The notes: generated by a model not told the origin, from the sequence alone. Counted from the first letter of the stretch, positions 43,429-51,227 are shown. The stretch: DNA of 64,000 nucleotides from Anaerolineales bacterium (GCA_025450445.1 JANWHN010000055.1:1325-65324); one strand, 5' to 3'. Made by a program: numbers and translations.

Positions 43429-44244
43429 TCATGGCTCGCGCAGCTGCTTTTCTAATTCTTGCAACGACACCCGCGACGTAAGATCCATGCTTACCGGCGT
43501 AACTGCTACCTGCCGTTTTACGATCACCGCGTGTACGTCTGTGTCCTCTGCGAAGGTACTTGCATCCGGAACTTGCTCGTACCCGGTTGAGCCGCGCTCG
43601 CTCCATGCCTTGCGTTGTGGGGCAGTCGGTAAGTAAAAGCGCAGCCTCGATAATTTGGTCATCACCCATGGGGTTTCTGCTGTAGCGTCAGAAGGGACTT
43701 CAACCTTTAGCACGTGCATATCTTCCGGGAATCTTTTGGCCAGCAATTGGCGGGCAAACAATGTTGTGAAGTGTGCTGATGCTTTGAAGTCAACCTCTTT
43801 TGAAAGGCTCAAATGATATTTATGGTCGGTCTCTAAAGAAATCGCCAGTGACGGAACCCCGTGCGACGCTCCTTCAAGAGCCGCGCCAACAGTGCCTGAA
43901 ATGGTTACTCCGGTCCCAAAGTTAGTCCCATAATTGATACCGGCAACCACCAGATCCGGAGGCGTCGGCATAATTTCCAGGATTGCATGTTGTACGGTCT
44001 GCGCTGGCGTGCCGCCAACTGCGTGAATGGTCCAATCGTTGCCATGGATTTTTATTTTCTGCGTAGTGATGATTCCGTCTGATGTTGGCGGCATGCTGCG
44101 GCCCATACCGGACGATTGCTCGCGTGGCGCAGCAACCCAAACATAGCCTAAGCTGGATAGCGCTTCTGCTGCCAACCATAGCCCTGGCGAATTGATCCCG
44201 TCATCATTTGTGAGCAGGATTTGTGGACGGCCGTTTTGAGCCAT
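43429..44244 (-). CDS. surE: 5'/3'-nucleotidase SurE
   Basis: ILLTNDDGINSPGL, GTPAQTV, GINYGTN. Confidence 0.9.
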   Translation of the reverse strand: MAQNGRPQILLTNDDGINSPGLWLAAEALSSLGYVWVAAPREQSSGMGRSMPPTSDGIITTQKIKIHGNDWTIHAVGGTPAQTVQHAILEIMPTPPDLVVAGINYGTNFGTGVTISGTVGAALEGASHGVPSLAISLETDHKYHLSLSKEVDFKASAHFTTLFARQLLAKRFPEDMHVLKVEVPSDATAETPWVMTKLSRLRFYLPTAPQRKAWSERGSTGYEQVPDASTFAEDTDVHAVIVKRQVAVTPVSMDLTSRVSLQELEKQLREP

Positions 44245-44297: not shown

Positions 44298-45692
44298 TTA
44301 AGGAATTCTATTGATTGCGTCAGAACCAAGCCGTATCTCAACATCAACAGCAGCGCTCGCATCATACTCATGAATGATGCGAACATTTGGGATATCAAAC
44401 AGCTCAGCCAGGTATGCCAGTGTGTATGGGTTGCCGGTGTGGTCCACCAGTACAGTCAGCCCAGAATTAGACGACGCATTGCCCGCGTTCACCACTGTGG
44501 CCCCCAACCCGCTAATCCACGTCTGCGCCCGCGCAGTCAGGTTTGCGTCGCCTGAACCATTCTGGATCGAAACTCGGGGTGCTTCTGCAGCCATTTTCTC
44601 AGCGGAAGTACCAGGTGTTTGCGGTCCTAAAGCAGTGTTGCTTGTGAAGATCTCATCACGCAGGTCTCGTATCTTGTCTGGGATCGGGATCAAGATCGCC
44701 AGATCGTCAGGTGATCGGCCGTAAATGACATATTCCTGACCAATAACACCTTTCTTGATGTCTTGTTCCTGAATTTGCATTGCCAGCACGGCCAGCTGGA
44801 TTGCATCTTCGAGGGTGAGATTAGTTTGAATACCGGCAGAAAGCTCTGCGAACAATTGTGGGGCGTTTGCGATTAGGCCGGGCAGCATGTCATATTCGAG
44901 TATTCGCTCGCGAATAGCAAAGATGATTTGCTGCTGGCGTTGAGCGCGTGCAAAGTCACCTCCCTCAGCGTGCCGTTCGCGCGCGTAGGCCAGCGCCACA
45001 TTTCCCGGCAAGGTTTGCCGTCCGGGTTTCAAGTTCTTCGGATTTGTATCGTTGCCTAATGGGTCTACAGTAATCGGAGCGAGTACGTCCACCGTGACAC
45101 CGCCGATTAGGTCAATAAAGCGAATAAATGCCTCAAAGTCGATCTGTGCGTAATAGTCGATAGGCACGCCGATGGTCTGCTCCACAGTTCGCATCGCCAG
45201 TTCAGGTCCGCCGCCTGGCGTTTTATACAGCTCGCCGAAATAATAGGCAGTGTTGATCTTATTGGGATTGAAGCCGGGAATAACCGCCCATAGATCGCGC
45301 GGCACCGAGAGCATCCCAGCAGTCTTTGACACTGGATCAATTGAAAGCAGCATCATCGTGTCAGTCCGTGAGGGGCCTTCGCCTGAACTCCAATCGCGAT
45401 AATCCAGACCCATCACCAAGATCGTGACTCGCTCGGCTCCGCTCCAGGCAGGAGGCAATGTAACCCCTTGCCCGCTGGCCTGAATTTCTTCGGAGGTGAG
45501 TCCCTCGTCGCCCGCACCCGCATCCGCGAAGAGGGGAAGGCCAAACAAGCCAGTCGGCGCCGAACCTGCGTATCTAGACCACGAATAAGCCGTGGGTACC
45601 AGGAAAAGCGAAAGAATTACAAAAAAGACCAGAGCCACAATCGAAAGGCGTCGGTGCTGCTGAACAAACGCGGGCAGTTTTATGCGTGCCAT
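44298..45692 (-). CDS. LytR-CpsA-Psr (LCP) family protein, second paralogue
   Basis: TM anchor, ILVMGLDYRD, RTDTMMLLSIDP, SVPRDLW. Same architecture as 9136..10578. Confidence 0.85.
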   Translation of the reverse strand: MARIKLPAFVQQHRRLSIVALVFFVILSLFLVPTAYSWSRYAGSAPTGLFGLPLFADAGAGDEGLTSEEIQASGQGVTLPPAWSGAERVTILVMGLDYRDWSSGEGPSRTDTMMLLSIDPVSKTAGMLSVPRDLWAVIPGFNPNKINTAYYFGELYKTPGGGPELAMRTVEQTIGVPIDYYAQIDFEAFIRFIDLIGGVTVDVLAPITVDPLGNDTNPKNLKPGRQTLPGNVALAYARERHAEGGDFARAQRQQQIIFAIRERILEYDMLPGLIANAPQLFAELSAGIQTNLTLEDAIQLAVLAMQIQEQDIKKGVIGQEYVIYGRSPDDLAILIPIPDKIRDLRDEIFTSNTALGPQTPGTSAEKMAAEAPRVSIQNGSGDANLTARAQTWISGLGATVVNAGNASSNSGLTVLVDHTGNPYTLAYLAELFDIPNVRIIHEYDASAAVDVEIRLGSDAINRIP

Positions 45693-45694
45693 GG

Positions 45695-46945
45695 CTACGG
45701 CGTCGGCGTTTCCGTCGGAGTTTCGCTTGGCGGTTCAGGCGTGTCGCTCGGCACCGGCGTATCGCTTGGCGCCGGAGACGTGTCCGTGGGTGTTTCTGTA
45801 TCAAACAGTGGAGTATCCGATGCAGTTGGTGGCACGACCGTCCAAGTTGGTGTTAATGTGAAAGGCAGTGTGCTGGTCGGCAAATCTGTCGGCCCGATGC
45901 AGGCCTCGAAGGCAAAATTCAGTTTGGCCTGCAGCTCCGCGTCAATACGCACATTCAAGGCATCCTGATACGCATCTGCGGCCGCGCACCAATCGCCTTC
46001 GGCTCCAAGTTGATCGCCAATGTGAACTAAGGATTGCCAATATCTTGTAAAGGCAGCAATGCCATTCGAGTCGCGCAGGTCTGGCGCCATGCCAACCAGC
46101 AGGCCATAGTAATAAGCCGCATCTTGCGGATAGGCTAACCAGAAGGCGTTGCCGTACAGGTACAACCGCGCCCATTCTCGATAATTTGATGCCAGTCCAT
46201 CCAGAGGCCCGAATTTTTCGGCCAGTGCAAAGTCGTAAAGGCCGGGCTCGAACAACCCGAACTCCACAATGTTCTGAGCGCCGCGATTGCGTAGCGCAGC
46301 AAATAACATTCCATCAACGTCTGCAGTATTGAAACCCGCATCCGCCTGGCGTAAAGCCAGCAGTGTATCGATTGCCTCGGTCCAATCGTGGGCCACCATC
46401 CGAGCTCGTGCCGCGACAAGCAGCTCTTCTTTCGGGCGGGGATCCTGAGTCGGGGTGGGCGATTCAGTGGGCAACTCCACTGAAGTAGATTGCGGCGTGT
46501 TGCCGATCACCAGCATCACTTCGATCCACAAGTCAGCTACGTCTAAAAATTCTGGATCTTGTGAAAAAATGTATTCGAGGCGCTGCCGCGCTAACTCGTA
46601 ACTTCCCGCTTCCATGTCCGCGATCGCAAGGTTGTATTGTTCCAGCATGTAGAAGCTGGCCTGCATGGTGGCTGTGGCATTGAACTCGGACCGACCAACA
46701 GACCACCCCGCTGCCCCGCTGGCTGCCGACACCAACAAGAGGGCGATGAAAACGGTCAGAACGACCACAGCGATCGGCGAGCGCAAAAATCTTCGCAATC
46801 GCCCTCCGCCTTTGGCTGGCGGCGCTGAATAACCGGGTTTCACCGGACGCGAAACGAGCCGGGAGCCTGATGCTGAAGACGGCCTCGTAGTTTGCGGACC
46901 CGAATTGAAACCCTTATTGGGTTTTGTGTCGCCTTGATTAGACAT
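45695..46945 (-). CDS. Membrane-anchored TPR-like repeat protein with a Thr/Pro/Asp-rich C-terminal tail
   Basis: ATG 46945 (MSNQGDTKPNKG) lies downstream of the terminator at about 47000. The track start at 47248 would overlap the upstream gene. One TM helix, helical-repeat body, tail ...TPTDTSPAPSDTPVPSDTPEPPSETPTETPTP. Confidence 0.65.
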   Translation of the reverse strand: MSNQGDTKPNKGFNSGPQTTRPSSASGSRLVSRPVKPGYSAPPAKGGGRLRRFLRSPIAVVVLTVFIALLLVSAASGAAGWSVGRSEFNATATMQASFYMLEQYNLAIADMEAGSYELARQRLEYIFSQDPEFLDVADLWIEVMLVIGNTPQSTSVELPTESPTPTQDPRPKEELLVAARARMVAHDWTEAIDTLLALRQADAGFNTADVDGMLFAALRNRGAQNIVEFGLFEPGLYDFALAEKFGPLDGLASNYREWARLYLYGNAFWLAYPQDAAYYYGLLVGMAPDLRDSNGIAAFTRYWQSLVHIGDQLGAEGDWCAAADAYQDALNVRIDAELQAKLNFAFEACIGPTDLPTSTLPFTLTPTWTVVPPTASDTPLFDTETPTDTSPAPSDTPVPSDTPEPPSETPTETPTP

Positions 46946-46983
46946 CTGGTCCGCGTATTCTACTTTTCTTTGAACACGGTTGC

Positions 46984-47020
46984 TTAAGAAAACATAGGGC
47001 GCAGAGATGCGCCCTATGTC
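46984..47020 (-). terminator. Intrinsic terminator after the lipoprotein gene
   Basis: Stem CATAGGGCGC/GCGCCCTATG, followed on the minus strand by TTTT. Confidence 0.6.
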
Positions 47021-47039
47021 TTTGTTCAGCTTTTCTGAC

Positions 47040-49163
47040 CTACTTGCTTTCGTCGTTGTCGGCTGCGCTCGAGCATTCTCGGTCGCCACCACCGGCTCCG
47101 GCGGTACTAAAGTCGATCCTTCCGTCGCCATCGTTGTCGATACCGTCGCTGCATTGGGCGGTCGCCTGAGTGTTGGCAGGAACGCGTGTCGGTGTGGGGG
47201 TTGCCGTTGGGTACAAGATGTAAGGCAGGTCGCTAGCCGGCACCTCATTCAATGGCCCGAATGGAATGTCGAAGAGGAAAACTGCTGCCCAACAACGATT
47301 GTTGGTAACCGGGCCTCTAAACAGCATCCACATGTTGTCGGGTCCGCGGCCGAGCGGCACATAACCCACTCCCTCAAACAATGTGTCCACGATCTGCGCG
47401 TCGTTGCTATTGCTGCGGCGGCAGTTCGCGTTCTGTTCGGGGAAGACCATCATTGCGGCCGTTGCAGGAGTCGGCGTGCAAGGTACTTGCCCCGCCGCTC
47501 CAGCTACGTTTGGTCCCGCGCACAACGTTGCAGTTGGGGTTGGCGAGCAAGTGATGAAAGTGCCCGTGTTGTCGGGAACGTAACACGGCGTTGCAGTTGG
47601 CGTCGATGTGCAAAGAACCAGGGCTGCGACCACGGCACCATTCACGCACACTGTCGGCGTCATGGTTGCGGTCGGGGTTGGCGTGCAGGTTACCTGCAGC
47701 TGTTGGCCGGGGTTGTTCGGCGCCGTTACAGATGTTGGCGTTCCCGTTGTGGTTGTCGTCGTTGTCACGCTCGGGGTCGTCGTGATGACGCCATAGCAAG
47801 TTGTGGCCGTCACCGTTGGTGTTGCCGTGTAAGTCGGCGTGCAGTTGATCACTGCAAACGGGTAGGGCGCTATGCAGTCAGTCGGCGTGTAGGTTGCCGT
47901 AGGCGTTGGTGTGCAATCTTCAAACTGACCAGCCTGGTTGTAGTAGAAGCACACGGTTGGTGTCGCCGTTTGAGTCAGGGTCGATGTTGATGTGGGCGTA
48001 CAAGTTGGAGCTTGTCCAACAGTTGAATTCGGTGGCAGGCACGGCGTGCCAGTCAGAGTTGGTGTCGGAGTGCAGGTCGCGTCAGGGGTCGACGCATTCG
48101 GGTCAACGCAAGGAGTTGTCACGGGTGGGGTTGGTGTTATGTCATCCGGGGTCGGCGATGGGGTCGGCGTGTCCGTCCGGTCATCTGGCAAGGTCGGAGT
48201 CGCTGTGGTTACTGGCGGCGTTGTCGTTGCGCTTGCTGCGGTGGGCGGCGCCACCGAGGGGTCATTCACACAAAGATCCGGGTCATCACCGGGTTGTCCA
48301 CCCCAGATCGAGGCACAGGTGTTATCCAACTCGTTGATTTCTTGAGATGGGAAGAAAGGTTGCCCTTCGATCGGATCACCAGCTTCAGGATGATCGAACG
48401 TGTCGTGATAATCCGCACCGGATGGGTTGTTGACGCCCTGATCTGTCCATGCCCACCATTTGAAGGTGGGATCATTTAGGATCGAGGAAGCCTTGAACGC
48501 GATCTCAACATGAGCCGGCTTACCTGGGTCGACACGCACCCAGGCCAGGTCAGGGTCGTCGCCTGCGCCCTGATCGAAGATCACGGAGTCAAAGCCATCG
48601 CCCGAGCTGGGTGGATCTGGCACTAGCGGGCGCTCATCGCCGACGTCATTGTCGTCGTCGCCGATGAAGCGCACACCGGCCACACTCCAGTCTTCAAGCG
48701 CTTCTTCGCTAGGGTCGTTAGCTAGGATCAAAACGTCGCCACGGCCATCGATATCCAGATCAATTTCAATTGCGTAGGTTCCGTCTAGTTGCTCAGTCCG
48801 GTCATTTTGGTCGAAGACTGTTAATCGAAAGTAGAACCATTCACCATCCTCACCCAACTCGGCAGACATAATGTCTAGGTCGGGGAAGAAGCGGTCCTGG
48901 CTTTCTGCGTTGAACGGACGCTCGTATCGGTTGATCTGCCAGCTATCGCAGCCACCGTCGGGCTGGATCGGCCCGTCGCTGCTGTAATCGGCTGGCAGTG
49001 CATCACCTGTGTTGCAGTCCCAGATGAGCTGCTCATAGACTGGGCTTCCCGGGCGACCGAAATGGTCGACCGTGGGCGCGGCGTTGCCGCCCGGGCCGCA
49101 GGCTGCAGCCAGCAGGCCGAGCAGCAAAAACAGATTGGCGTTCAGTAAAATTTTCTTTCTCAT
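47040..49163 (-). CDS. Large lipoprotein: acidic N-terminal domain, Cys-loop/TPTPT linker array, SH3b-like module, Cys-flanked DxDxD motif
   Basis: Lipobox LLAAAC after a signal peptide, GAGGAG Shine-Dalgarno, and a domain order visible in the translation. Confidence 0.75.
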   Translation of the reverse strand: MRKKILLNANLFLLLGLLAAACGPGGNAAPTVDHFGRPGSPVYEQLIWDCNTGDALPADYSSDGPIQPDGGCDSWQINRYERPFNAESQDRFFPDLDIMSAELGEDGEWFYFRLTVFDQNDRTEQLDGTYAIEIDLDIDGRGDVLILANDPSEEALEDWSVAGVRFIGDDDNDVGDERPLVPDPPSSGDGFDSVIFDQGAGDDPDLAWVRVDPGKPAHVEIAFKASSILNDPTFKWWAWTDQGVNNPSGADYHDTFDHPEAGDPIEGQPFFPSQEINELDNTCASIWGGQPGDDPDLCVNDPSVAPPTAASATTTPPVTTATPTLPDDRTDTPTPSPTPDDITPTPPVTTPCVDPNASTPDATCTPTPTLTGTPCLPPNSTVGQAPTCTPTSTSTLTQTATPTVCFYYNQAGQFEDCTPTPTATYTPTDCIAPYPFAVINCTPTYTATPTVTATTCYGVITTTPSVTTTTTTTGTPTSVTAPNNPGQQLQVTCTPTPTATMTPTVCVNGAVVAALVLCTSTPTATPCYVPDNTGTFITCSPTPTATLCAGPNVAGAAGQVPCTPTPATAAMMVFPEQNANCRRSNSNDAQIVDTLFEGVGYVPLGRGPDNMWMLFRGPVTNNRCWAAVFLFDIPFGPLNEVPASDLPYILYPTATPTPTRVPANTQATAQCSDGIDNDGDGRIDFSTAGAGGGDRECSSAADNDESK
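47454..48251 (-). repeat. Coding repeat array: 10-13 residue Cys-bounded loops alternating with TPTPT-type linkers
   Basis: Residues about 305-570 of the lipoprotein, for example C-VDPNASTPDAT-C-TPTPTLTGTP-C-LPPNSTVGQAPT-C-TPTSTS... Confidence 0.7.
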
Positions 49164-49251
49164 TTCGATCTCCTCTTTCTAGCTTGTCTCTTTTATTAGA
49201 TGAGCAAAAGCCTAGTTTGCTTCATTTTGCCCAGGCGTATTTGCTCGCTGC

Positions 49252-50139
49252 TTATCGATTAAGTTCATCATCATCTTGCGCGTTGCGGCATTGTGGGTCT
49301 CGAAGATCGGTGTACTTATCATTGTCATTATCAACCCCGTCATTGCATTCAGGTAACGAAGGTGCGATGGTCTCGCTGGGCTCTGGCGTAAAGGTCAGGG
49401 TAGGCGAGGGAGTCGGGGTGGGTGGATAGTTGACGAACGGCAACAAAGTTTCCGAGACCTGTTCGATTTGCACCGGGTCGTCATTGATCAAGAGGGTCAG
49501 GTTTTCGAGGAAAACCCAGCAGTTGGTTTGGAACGATGGCCCCTCAAATAGCACCCAGAGATTGTCAAAGCCGCGCCCGATCGGGGAGTACTCTTCGCCC
49601 GCAAATAGTGTGTCCGCAATCTCGAACACGGACCCGTTGCCTTCGCGGCAGTTGGCATTTTGCAGTGGGATAGCCGTCAGGATCTGCACAGCGACGGTCT
49701 CGCTGGGAATGACGGCTGGAACCAAGGTAGACGTCGCAGTTGACGTAGCGGTTGGCGTATCCGTGGCAGTCGGCTCGGCCTTTGCTCCACCTGGGAATAA
49801 TTGCGAAGCTCCAAACAACCCCAGCACGAGCAGAATGAGAATCAGCAGGATCCCCAATCCCCCGAATGGGAAAGAAAATCCACCTGGCTGAAAGCCGGAC
49901 TGTACATTCTTAATCAGTTCGCTTTCACTCGCCTTGGTTAATCCTTTTTGCGGCCACTCCGCTTTCATCGCAGCAGCCAGGGCGCCCTCCAGCCCGGCAA
50001 GCTCCGCGGCGAATGCCCGGCATTCTGCGCAGGTCTTGAGATGGCCTTCCAGAGCGCGTTGCTCGGATGCCTCGAGCAAACCATCGCTGGCTTGCTCGAT
50101 CCATTCGCGTGCCTGAGAATGAGAAAGCTGTGCCATCAT
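49252..50139 (-). CDS. Anti-sigma factor (zf-HC2 N-domain, one TM helix, extracytoplasmic SH3b-like + DxDxD module)
   Basis: HLKTCAECRAF (Hx3Cx2C) and the TM helix GILLILILLVLGLFG. ATGA overlap with the sigma gene. Confidence 0.75.
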   Translation of the reverse strand: MMAQLSHSQAREWIEQASDGLLEASEQRALEGHLKTCAECRAFAAELAGLEGALAAAMKAEWPQKGLTKASESELIKNVQSGFQPGGFSFPFGGLGILLILILLVLGLFGASQLFPGGAKAEPTATDTPTATSTATSTLVPAVIPSETVAVQILTAIPLQNANCREGNGSVFEIADTLFAGEEYSPIGRGFDNLWVLFEGPSFQTNCWVFLENLTLLINDDPVQIEQVSETLLPFVNYPPTPTPSPTLTFTPEPSETIAPSLPECNDGVDNDNDKYTDLRDPQCRNAQDDDELNR

Positions 50140-50696
50140 GTGGTCCTGTTTATGCCCTGCGTTCGTTTCAAATCGCCGCCCAAACGCTCCCGGGCGATCG
50201 AGAGCCGAGAATGGATCGTGCCCACGTTGACTCCAAGCGTCTCGGCGATCTCTTGGGTCGAAAGGTCGTGGTAGTAGCGCAAAATAATTGGCAGGCGGTG
50301 TTTTTCGTCAAGGTTGTTGATCGCCTGCAAAAGAGCTTGCGACTTTTCTGTTTCCATAAATTCGCGTTCAGGGTTTTGTTTGCCTGTCCCGTGACTGATT
50401 GATGGGTCAGCCAAAGTATTGGTGAGCACGGTTCGGCGTTTGCGTTGGCGCAGATAATGTCGGCTCGTATTGATCGCGATCGAGAAGAGCCATGTGTGAA
50501 ACGCGCTGTCACCCCGATAATTTTTGAGGGCCTTTAGAGCGGCGATAAAGCTTTCTTGAGTGGCGTCTTCCGCATCGGCTGCATCGTCCAGGATCGATAG
50601 GCAAAGTCGGAAAATCCTTGCTTGATGCTCATGAACAAGGTCTTCAATGGCTTTCGGGTCGCCAGAGCGACATTTAGCGAGTTGGTCTTTGTCCAA
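50136..50696 (-). CDS. ECF-type RNA polymerase sigma-70 family factor
   Basis: Region 2 (DATQESFIAALKAL..F.TWLFSIAIN) and region 4 (LSTQEIAETLGVNVGTIHSRLSIAR). TTG start. Confidence 0.9.
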   Translation of the reverse strand: MDKDQLAKCRSGDPKAIEDLVHEHQARIFRLCLSILDDAADAEDATQESFIAALKALKNYRGDSAFHTWLFSIAINTSRHYLRQRKRRTVLTNTLADPSISHGTGKQNPEREFMETEKSQALLQAINNLDEKHRLPIILRYYHDLSTQEIAETLGVNVGTIHSRLSIARERLGGDLKRTQGINRTT

Positions 50697-50820
50697 GTCT
50701 TGGTTCTAGCCGATTAGATGGGCCTTGGTATGGTTTGCTTCATTTCCCATGTCTTTCGAATAGCGGCATTATCGCGCTGATTAATTGGGAAGGGGATTAT
50801 TGGTCAAAAATCAAGGTACA

Positions 50821-50849
50821 AAAATGCCGCCCAATTGGGCGGCATTTTG
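50821..50849. terminator. Bidirectional intrinsic terminator ending the tRNA operon
   Basis: AAAA, stem TGCCGCCC/GGGCGGCA, then TTTT. Confidence 0.7.
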
Positions 50850-50855
50850 TTTCAG

Positions 50856-50928
50856 CGCTCTCGCCGCGACTCGAACGCGGGACCCTTTGCTCCGCAAGCA
50901 AATGCTCTATCCACTGAGCTACGAGAGC
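50856..50928 (-). tRNA. tRNA-Arg (anticodon GCG)
   Basis: Reverse complement GCTCTCG-TA-GCTC-AGTGGATA-GAGC-A-TTTGC-TTGCGGA-GCAAA-GGGTC-CCGCG-TTCGAGT-CGCGG-CGAGAGC-G. Confidence 0.85.
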
Positions 50929-50982
50929 TTGCGAGCCGCTATGCGGCTCGCGTTGGAGTTTCGTGATTTTCGAAACTCCAAC
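50929..50982 (-). repeat. Two-hairpin element, copy C, directly abutting the 5' end of tRNA-Arg
   Basis: Minus strand: TTGGAGTTTCG-aaaatca-CGAAACTCCAA followed by CGCGAGCCGC-ata-GCGGCTCGCA. Confidence 0.6.
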
Positions 50983-51020
50983 GATCTGAATTGTAACCAG
51001 CGAGGGTTATAAATTCAAGG

Positions 51021-51112
51021 CGGGGAGGGAGGGATTCGAACCCTCGTCCGAGGAAAACCCCCGGAACCCACTTAGCAGGCGGGCGCACTAGACCGGGCTA
51101 TGCGACCTCCCC
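51021..51112 (-). tRNA. tRNA-Ser (anticodon GCU), type II
   Basis: Acceptor GGGGAGG/CCTCCCC, anticodon stem-loop CCCGC-CTGCTAA-GTGGG, long variable arm, T-loop TTCGAAT. Confidence 0.9.
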
Positions 51113-51139
51113 GAGTTAACGGTGCTTGATTGTATTACA

Positions 51140-51227
<88 letters not shown>

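Follow-up and report, generated by a model that had tools for sequence, protein, structure and literature searches.

An ECF sigma factor system of Anaerolineales: an uncharacterised module recurs on the sensor and on the proteins of the predicted regulon

In this study we analysed a 64,000-nucleotide stretch of DNA from an Anaerolineales bacterium (GCA_025450445.1, JANWHN010000055.1:1325-65324; hereafter the window), whose minus strand carries genes for an extracytoplasmic function (ECF) sigma factor (50136-50696; 186 amino acids (aa), TTG start), a zf-HC2 anti-sigma factor (49252-50139; 295 aa) and a lipoprotein (47040-49163; 707 aa). The anti-sigma factor, in its outer part, and the lipoprotein, at its C-terminus, carry copies of the same module, and genes encoding module-bearing proteins share a promoter-like motif with the sigma gene, both here and in related loci. 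This is an ECF system whose uncharacterised sensor module also marks its predicted regulon, and it has a precedent in principle, not in parts. On balance we judge it probable that the system is autoregulated, that its regulon consists of module-tagged surface proteins, and that the anti-sigma factor senses the ligand which these proteins have in common.

The similarity between the two proteins had been noticed by eye in the initial annotation of the window, and formal alignment proved it to be real. Residues 124-292 of the anti-sigma factor match residues 538-705 of the lipoprotein with strong significance (BLASTP E=3e-27; 38% identity over 181 columns), which confirms at the sequence level that the two regions are paralogous. 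Because the Thr/Pro-rich linkers could inflate the full-length score, the pieces were also scored separately. The 85-residue core without these linkers gave a score of 168, against 24.4 ± 4.7 for 2000 shuffles (z=31), and the acidic tails gave 70, against 24.4 ± 4.5 for the same number of shuffles (z=10). The motif blocks picked out by eye (NCR, DTLF..G..Y.P.GRG.DN.W.LF.GP....CW, LP..Y.P and C.DG.DND) correspond to positions at which the homologues vary little or not at all. Searched by tblastn, the 64-kb window contains just two copies of the module, those of the anti-sigma factor and the lipoprotein.

In a neighbour-joining tree of 24 modules all of the anti-sigma copies cluster together, and the copies of the lipoproteins and of M4 metalloproteases form separate clades; the one misfit is the copy of an immunoglobulin (Ig)-like lipoprotein from locus L008, which sits among the anti-sigma copies. 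Since the modules mostly cluster by the class of their host protein, the duplication appears to be old and vertically maintained under selection rather than a recent copy. Gene conversion or recent copying between the anti-sigma and lipoprotein genes was considered and rejected, as orthologues are 59-67% identical, paralogues only 38%, and the two kinds of copy occupy separate clades.

The module consists of a folded core, which had been described as SH3b-like, and an acidic tail. The core spans residues 154-238 of the anti-sigma factor (49426-49680, minus strand), where it contains the pair Cys164/Cys207, and residues 569-652 of the lipoprotein (47208-47459, minus strand). The AlphaFold2 (AF2) model of the anti-sigma module shows an all-beta core and a tail of poor definition; in the core the predicted local distance difference test (pLDDT) score is mostly 87-93, with 66 for a single block of 10 residues. 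When this model was compared with the PDB using Foldseek, the top matches were bacterial SH3 domains (2krs, 2kt8, 4krt from the phiSM101 endolysin, 6sqx from an NlpC/P60 protein, and a YrvJ model), with TM-scores on the target of 0.6-0.74, and about 0.65 for the top PDB matches. A search of the PDB sequences with the module profile returned nothing at E<=1. The same profile was run exhaustively against 1.84 billion representative proteins and matched 199 of them at E<=1e-3; only 52 clusters in the whole library reached E<=1e-10, so the module is rare. Eight lower-ranked matches were scanned with Pfam, and seven of them proved to be PF08239 (SH3_3) proteins (E from 1e-16 to 1e-7), most of them with multiple repeats, matched over approximately positions 7-57 of the module profile. 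On the basis of the model and of these profile matches, the core is a divergent bacterial SH3 (SH3b) domain at the superfamily or fold level, in agreement with its first description. Like the cell-wall-binding PF08239 domains of endolysins, NlpC/P60 proteins and amidases, with which it has the fold and a distant profile similarity in common, it occupies an accessory, non-catalytic position on exported enzymes. It differs from them in escaping detection by Pfam, in its conserved Cys pair, in some 30 additional residues at the C-terminal side, which close with LLPFxxYP, and in the acidic tail that usually follows.

This tail, which is Cys-bounded, was found at 49255-49365 in the anti-sigma gene (C265...C284, CNDGVDNDNDKYTD...C...DDDE) and at 47043-47177 in the lipoprotein gene (residues 663-707; C671...C697, CSDGIDNDGDGRID...C...DNDE), both on the minus strand. 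It has the pattern C.DG.DND.D...C...D(N/D)DE with a DxDxDGxxD-type loop, and always forms the extreme C-terminus. Its supposed likeness to MopE and thrombospondin type 3 repeats stands as far as the pattern and weak profile matches are concerned, and fails as an assignment to a family, because all of the scores lie under the cut-offs. Against NF033662 (the acidic double-disulfide repeat; cut-off 41 bits) the anti-sigma tail scored 23.8 and the lipoprotein tail 26.1 bits, and PF11617 (the MopE motif), recorded for the latter, scored 13.4 bits (E=0.09; cut-off 27). What the tails have in common with NF033662, PF11617 and thrombospondin type 3 repeats is the sequence C.DG.DND.DG..D with flanking Cys residues; what separates them, apart from the scores, is that the motif occurs once per protein, at the very C-terminus, and has two Cys residues where an NF033662 repeat has four. 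The tail thus resembles a calcium site without belonging to either family. True TSP_3 repeats do occur in the M4 proteases, where they precede the module. The tail is optional, being absent from the anti-sigma factor of locus L001 and from several partner proteins. Its absence from both proteins of L001 had suggested a strict co-occurrence in anti-sigma factor and partner; this was rejected, since in L008 and L009 only the anti-sigma factor has a tail.

The assignment of the two regulatory proteins as an ECF sigma factor and its zf-HC2 anti-sigma factor was borne out by domain searches. The sigma factor matches the Pfam families Sigma70_r2 (1.5e-18) and Sigma70_r4_2 (7e-15), as well as Sigma70_ECF, and scores 119 bits with TIGR02937 (cut-off 42.9); with regions 2 and 4 only and a length of 186 aa, within the range of about 180-200 aa for this group, it is an ECF (group 4) sigma factor. 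The anti-sigma factor matches zf-HC2 (PF13490; 25.3 bits, cut-off 22.2) and has the N-terminal motif HxxxCxxC in the form H33-x3-C37-x2-C40. It contains one hydrophobic transmembrane helix at about residues 92-112, with the hydropathy peak at residue 92, and its predicted architecture comprises the anti-sigma domain, the transmembrane helix, a Thr/Pro linker, the SH3b-like domain, a second linker and the acidic tail; the SH3b-like module is the sole folded extracytoplasmic part of the protein. In L002 (671-1592) the orthologous anti-sigma gene is split within the SH3b domain into open reading frames (ORFs) of 184 and 120 aa, by either a frameshift or an assembly error.

The order given in the initial annotation (ECF sigma factor, anti-sigma factor with ATGA overlap, 88 nt, 707-aa lipoprotein, terminator) was found in its entirety on the minus strand. 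The stop codon of the sigma gene overlaps the anti-sigma start codon in the ATGA at 50136-50139, an arrangement typical of an adjacent, translationally coupled cognate anti-sigma factor, and an intrinsic-terminator-like hairpin (46992-47019, minus strand), with a 12-bp GC-rich stem followed by TTTTCTT, is placed just 3' of the lipoprotein stop codon. With pairs of the RpoE/RseA and SigW/RsiW type the system has in common regions 2 and 4 of the sigma factor and a coupled anti-sigma factor with HxxxCxxC and one transmembrane helix; the motif upstream of the sigma gene, a candidate for autoregulation, would correspond to their promoters with its -35 element of the GAA type and its -10 element of the CGTCT/CATCT type. 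The system is unlike them in that its sensor has no Pfam model and in that its predicted regulon is defined by a common protein module.

Related loci, 38 in all, were collected by a protein word search, by looking up contigs and by scanning both GTDB species genomes and metagenomes (the word-indexed protein search by itself found six module relatives only). The named loci from the genome scan all come from Anaerolineales, Anaerolineaceae or Chloroflexota metagenome-assembled genomes (MAGs), with the exception of one 1.3-kb contig (L014; JAKSDB010000192.1, 1274 bp), a module-bearing fragment binned with Chlorobiales, probably in error. At least 14 Anaerolineales loci have the arrangement sigma gene, anti-sigma gene with module, partner gene (X) with module. 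The pairing is seen in L001, L002, L006-L009, L011, L013 and L021, and also in L005, L019, L022, L025 and L026, whose contigs are cut within or just before X. In all of the anti-sigma orthologues found the module is retained, and a search with the first 120 residues of the anti-sigma factor, aimed at more distant orthologues with other sensor domains, gave no match above threshold.

The rest of the partner protein changes from locus to locus. X belongs to the family of the window lipoprotein in the window itself and in L001, L002, L005, L006, L007, L009 and L019. It is replaced in L008 and L026 by an operon encoding an 814-aa membrane protein and a 259-aa Ig-like lipoprotein, in L011 by the gene of a 1362-aa right-handed beta-helix protein, and in L013 by that of an unrelated 434-aa lipoprotein. 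Elsewhere the module ends M4 metalloproteases with TSP_3 repeats (L012, L015/P0139, P0152) and the beta-helix proteins P0142, P0146, P0149, P0156 and P0161, so that at least five unrelated types of exported protein bear it. The operon of the membrane protein (~814-826 aa) and the Ig-like lipoprotein (~260 aa, with an SH3b end) shifts its position between genomes: it precedes the sigma gene in L001 (992-4268), follows the anti-sigma gene in L008 (8562-11813) and L026 (1617-), and in L028 (988-3761) occupies a contig with no sigma gene seen nearby.

Alignment of the regions upstream of the sigma genes revealed the conserved sequence ATGAAG-N17-C(A/G)TCTAAT. The initial annotation had proposed that an ECF promoter motif be identified upstream of positions 50696 and 49163, and the conserved motif is present at both. 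There are exactly two matches in the window (0.21 expected for a looser pattern), both on the minus strand: one at 50713-50742 (TGAAGCAAACCATACCAAGGCCCATCTAAT), before the sigma gene, where it is predicted to act as an autoregulatory promoter, and the other at 49195-49224 (TGAAGCAAACTAGGCTTTTGCTCATCTAAT), in the 88-nt gap before the lipoprotein gene. The lipoprotein gene, which does follow the pair on the same strand, is therefore not simply co-transcribed with it, as had been supposed, for it is preceded by its own copy of the ECF-type motif of the sigma gene.

Counted on both strands of the window and the 38 loci together, 335 kb in total, the pattern TGAAG-N17-C[AG]TC[TC]AAT has 31 matches (26 distinct sequences), against approximately 0.03 expected. 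Every one of them is on the coding strand, and in 30 of the 31 cases a sigma gene, or else a gene or operon with the module, begins a short distance downstream; the odd one, at position 7398 of L028, is followed only by the end of the contig. Sigma orthologues of at least 11 further loci are preceded by the motif, as is the orthologous or replacement X gene in L001, L002, L006, L007, L008, L009, L011, L021, L022 and L025. It is also present before the M4 protease genes of L012 and L015 and the beta-helix genes of L016, L024 and L030/L031, with no sigma gene seen nearby. Of the Ig-lipoprotein operons, those of L008 and L028 have an exact copy upstream; in L026 there is a near match, ending in TCTATA, and in L001 a weak one. 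A -10 variant, TCCAAT instead of TCTAAT, occurs in L008 (6930 and 8500), L016 (4878) and L024 (3110); in L008 it is found in both the sigma and the X promoters, as would follow from their recognition by a single sigma factor. The occurrence of the same motif before the sigma gene and the module genes ties the latter to the sigma factor, a link that the spread of the module over unrelated proteins does not break, and the module-bearing genes with these -35 and -10 elements most likely constitute its direct regulon.

Directly upstream of the sigma promoter the window contains three tRNA genes (Ser-TGA, Ser-GCT and Arg-GCG; 50855-51227, minus strand). A terminator-like hairpin (gccgcccaattgggcggcattttt) follows this cluster at approximately 50815-50845, and the sigma gene thus appears to have its own promoter.

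The mechanism that we propose is as follows. The anti-sigma factor would span the membrane once and display the SH3b domain and the acidic loop outside the cell on a Thr/Pro-rich stalk. Like other SH3b domains, the module would bind a single ligand there, most probably a glycan of the cell-wall type or a polymer akin to peptidoglycan, which might belong either to the cell's own wall or to material on which it feeds. The ligand state of the anti-sigma copy would control the stability of this protein, presumably by regulated proteolysis as in other single-pass anti-sigma factors, and the sigma factor thus freed would transcribe its own gene and those of proteins directed to the same ligand. The proteases and beta-helix proteins of the predicted regulon would suit a role in the degradation of external material.

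Several observations weigh against this proposal. The Foldseek E-values of the SH3b matches are weak (0.004-0.08), and a Pfam search of both modules at E<=10 gave no match to an SH3 family (none reached the gathering score of PF08239), only noise and a weak MopE match; the class of the ligand, in turn, is suggested by analogy, from the SH3b fold class alone. The motif counts hold for 335 kb of contigs rather than for whole genomes. No motif was found before the module gene of L017 or before the lipoprotein genes of L005 and L019, where read-through from the sigma operon is possible, and no X follows the anti-sigma gene in L010. Several of the cargo proteins have a lipobox-like start and are perhaps anchored in the membrane as it is, so that the module would serve for more than retention alone. 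Finally, the loci come from one order and include near-identical contigs (L009/L021/L022/L029 and L030/L031), so that part of the conservation of motif and synteny reflects shared descent and the number of independent observations is overstated.

These points bear differently on the other explanations that may be considered. The module might be a lineage-specific domain for surface localisation or anchoring, with the anti-sigma factor controlled by other means, through its disordered Thr/Pro stalk or its cytoplasmic zinc site. We regard this as unlikely, yet as the best of the alternatives. The initial annotation had itself named a ubiquitous, lineage-specific C-terminal sorting tag on many unrelated secreted proteins as an outcome that would refute its reading, and this is partly what was found: the unrelated protein types that end in the module, at least five in number, and the dispensability of the acidic tail would both suit a localisation domain, yet the module is rare and linked to the motif. 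A redox-sensing function of the zf-HC2 motif is conceivable, and sensing through a disordered extracytoplasmic region has been described for RsgI of B. subtilis (PMC9732909). What speaks for a sensory role instead is that the only folded outer part of the anti-sigma factor is the module, kept in all of the orthologues found, that the slot after the anti-sigma gene is always occupied by a module-bearing gene while the rest of the protein changes, and that the promoter motif of the sigma gene precedes module genes even at distant loci.

Feedback by the products, the second suggestion of the initial annotation, is another reading: module proteins would be produced under the control of the sigma factor and would then compete with the anti-sigma factor for a limited docking site, or bind it directly, and the activity of the sigma factor would track the filling of the surface. 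With its own ECF-type promoter motif the lipoprotein is a predicted regulon member, its gene directly follows that of the anti-sigma factor in most loci, and both proteins hold the module distally on long stalks. Same-operon co-regulators are known for other ECF systems, e.g. RseB with RseA. Such mimicry seems to us rather improbable, because L010 has no partner gene after that of the anti-sigma factor, the partner is not the same in every genome, the two paralogues share no more than 38% identity and have each gone their own evolutionary way, and SH3b domains are known as ligand binders, not as self-associating units.

To about the same small degree we can credit a more speculative reading, in which the anti-sigma factor is a 'dummy cargo' that gauges the free capacity of a common scaffold, wall or sheath polymer by calcium-dependent docking, and adjusts the synthesis of the whole module-tagged set to it. 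Were it true, the system would be a surface-occupancy homeostat with a dockerin-like acidic loop, representing a new principle of ECF sensing, and Anaerolineales would possess a cellulosome-like, organised surface assembly.

Least probable of all is that the sigma factor mainly controls the downstream genes for a TPR-like protein and an LCP (LytR-CpsA-Psr) enzyme, i.e. cell-wall polymer attachment, with the lipoprotein as an accessory, a regulon which the initial annotation had thought probable: all of the longer loci do have the order sigma/anti-sigma/(X)/TPR-like/LCP/SurE, and in L010 the TPR-like gene directly follows the anti-sigma gene, but a strong terminator-like hairpin intervenes 3' of the lipoprotein gene and the TPR-like and LCP genes lack an upstream motif in every locus, so this regulon is not supported, and the link that stands is a conserved synteny which, being observed in one order only, may be inherited rather than functional.

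A precedent for the preferred reading, i.e. a sensor module shared by the anti-sigma factor and the proteins of its regulon, is provided by Clostridium thermocellum, whose RsgI anti-sigma factors carry CBM3, GH10 or PA14 modules, and whose SigI factors act through specific promoter consensus sequences on targets that include CBM3- and GH10-bearing cellulosomal proteins (PMC4711584; PMC10328401; PMC6852018). In both cases the family of the outer module of a membrane anti-sigma factor recurs in the regulated secreted proteins (here a predicted regulon), and the sigma gene and the target genes have a promoter consensus in common (here a motif only). The parts are nevertheless unrelated and the likeness is one of logic only, in which sensor and products would recognise one and the same ligand: the system described here consists of a plain ECF sigma factor with regions 2 and 4 and a zf-HC2 anti-sigma factor, neither of them a member of the SigI/RsgI family, where RsgI has an N-terminal domain of its own and an autoproteolytic periplasmic domain; its module is SH3b-like with an acidic Cys loop instead of a carbohydrate-binding module or a glycoside hydrolase, and it resides in Chloroflexota, not Firmicutes. 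A full-text literature search retrieved no anti-sigma sensor of the SH3/SH3b type and no ECF system of this kind in Anaerolineae.

From the sequence alone a compact system has emerged, with a defined motif, a predicted regulon recognisable by its module, and a sensor that bears the same module. To our knowledge, most ECF sigma factors have been assigned neither a signal nor a regulon, and regulation in Chloroflexota is experimentally largely unexplored. If our interpretation is true, the design principle of SigI/RsgI, in which the sensor takes over the targeting module of the enzymes under its control, would have arisen independently from ECF parts and an SH3b-type module, and this would give a handle on surface display and binding in Anaerolineales. 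The analysis also defines two uncharacterised domain families, namely the SH3b-plus-acidic-tail module and the N-terminal domain of the lipoprotein.

The lipoprotein has the lipobox LAAAC, with its Cys at residue 22, followed by a beta-rich, uncharacterised N-domain (approximately residues 23-305; 48249-49097, minus strand). The AF2 model of this domain is well defined (pLDDT 88; predicted TM-score (pTM) 0.82). Compared with the PDB, its fold gave no meaningful Foldseek match (the best had E=0.0095 and a TM-score of 0.24), and its profile matched no PDB sequence at E<=1. It has 159 homologous clusters and no Pfam family, and the named clusters come from Anaerolineales/Anaerolineaceae or Chloroflexota MAGs. 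Other members of the family end in SdrD_B or CarboxypepD_reg domains, not in the SH3b module. The idea that the N-domain family as a whole is tied to ECF loci was rejected, because the homologues P0011 and P0039, which lack the module, are encoded in unrelated contexts, not beside a sigma gene and without the motif.

Between the N-domain and the module lies a Thr/Pro stalk (residues 306-568; 47460-48248, minus strand) with approximately eight short Cys-x(10-13)-Cys loops between TPTPT-type linkers, e.g. CVDPNASTPDATC, CLPPNSTVGQAPTC, CFYYNQAGQFEDC and CIAPYPFAVINC. Judged by this pattern, the stalk resembles a chain of small hairpins, each closed by a disulfide. The orthologous lipoproteins of L001 and L002 have more Cys loops in their stalks.

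The genes beyond the terminator-like hairpin, all on the minus strand, encode a TPR-like single-pass membrane protein (45695-46945; about 416 aa, beginning MSNQGD...; weak match to TPR_20, E=0.01), an LCP glycopolymer transferase (44298-45692; LytR_cpsA_psr, 4.7e-40) and SurE (43429-44244; 1.4e-45). Their synteny with the sigma locus is seen in L001, L002, L006-L011 and L013. The full order sigma/anti-sigma/X/TPR-like/LCP/SurE is present in L001, L002, L007-L009, L011 and L013, and in L006 the contig ends within the TPR-like gene; parts of this order are visible on the shorter contigs of L005, L019, L021, L022, L025, L026 and L029. The mechanically listed TPR-like ORF of 517 aa (45695-47248) overlaps the 3' end of the lipoprotein gene. 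Because its orthologues have 413-438 aa and begin with MS(Q/T)NL..., and in view of the position of the terminator, its true start is placed at about 46945. The TPR-like protein ends in a long Thr/Pro/Ser-rich tail.

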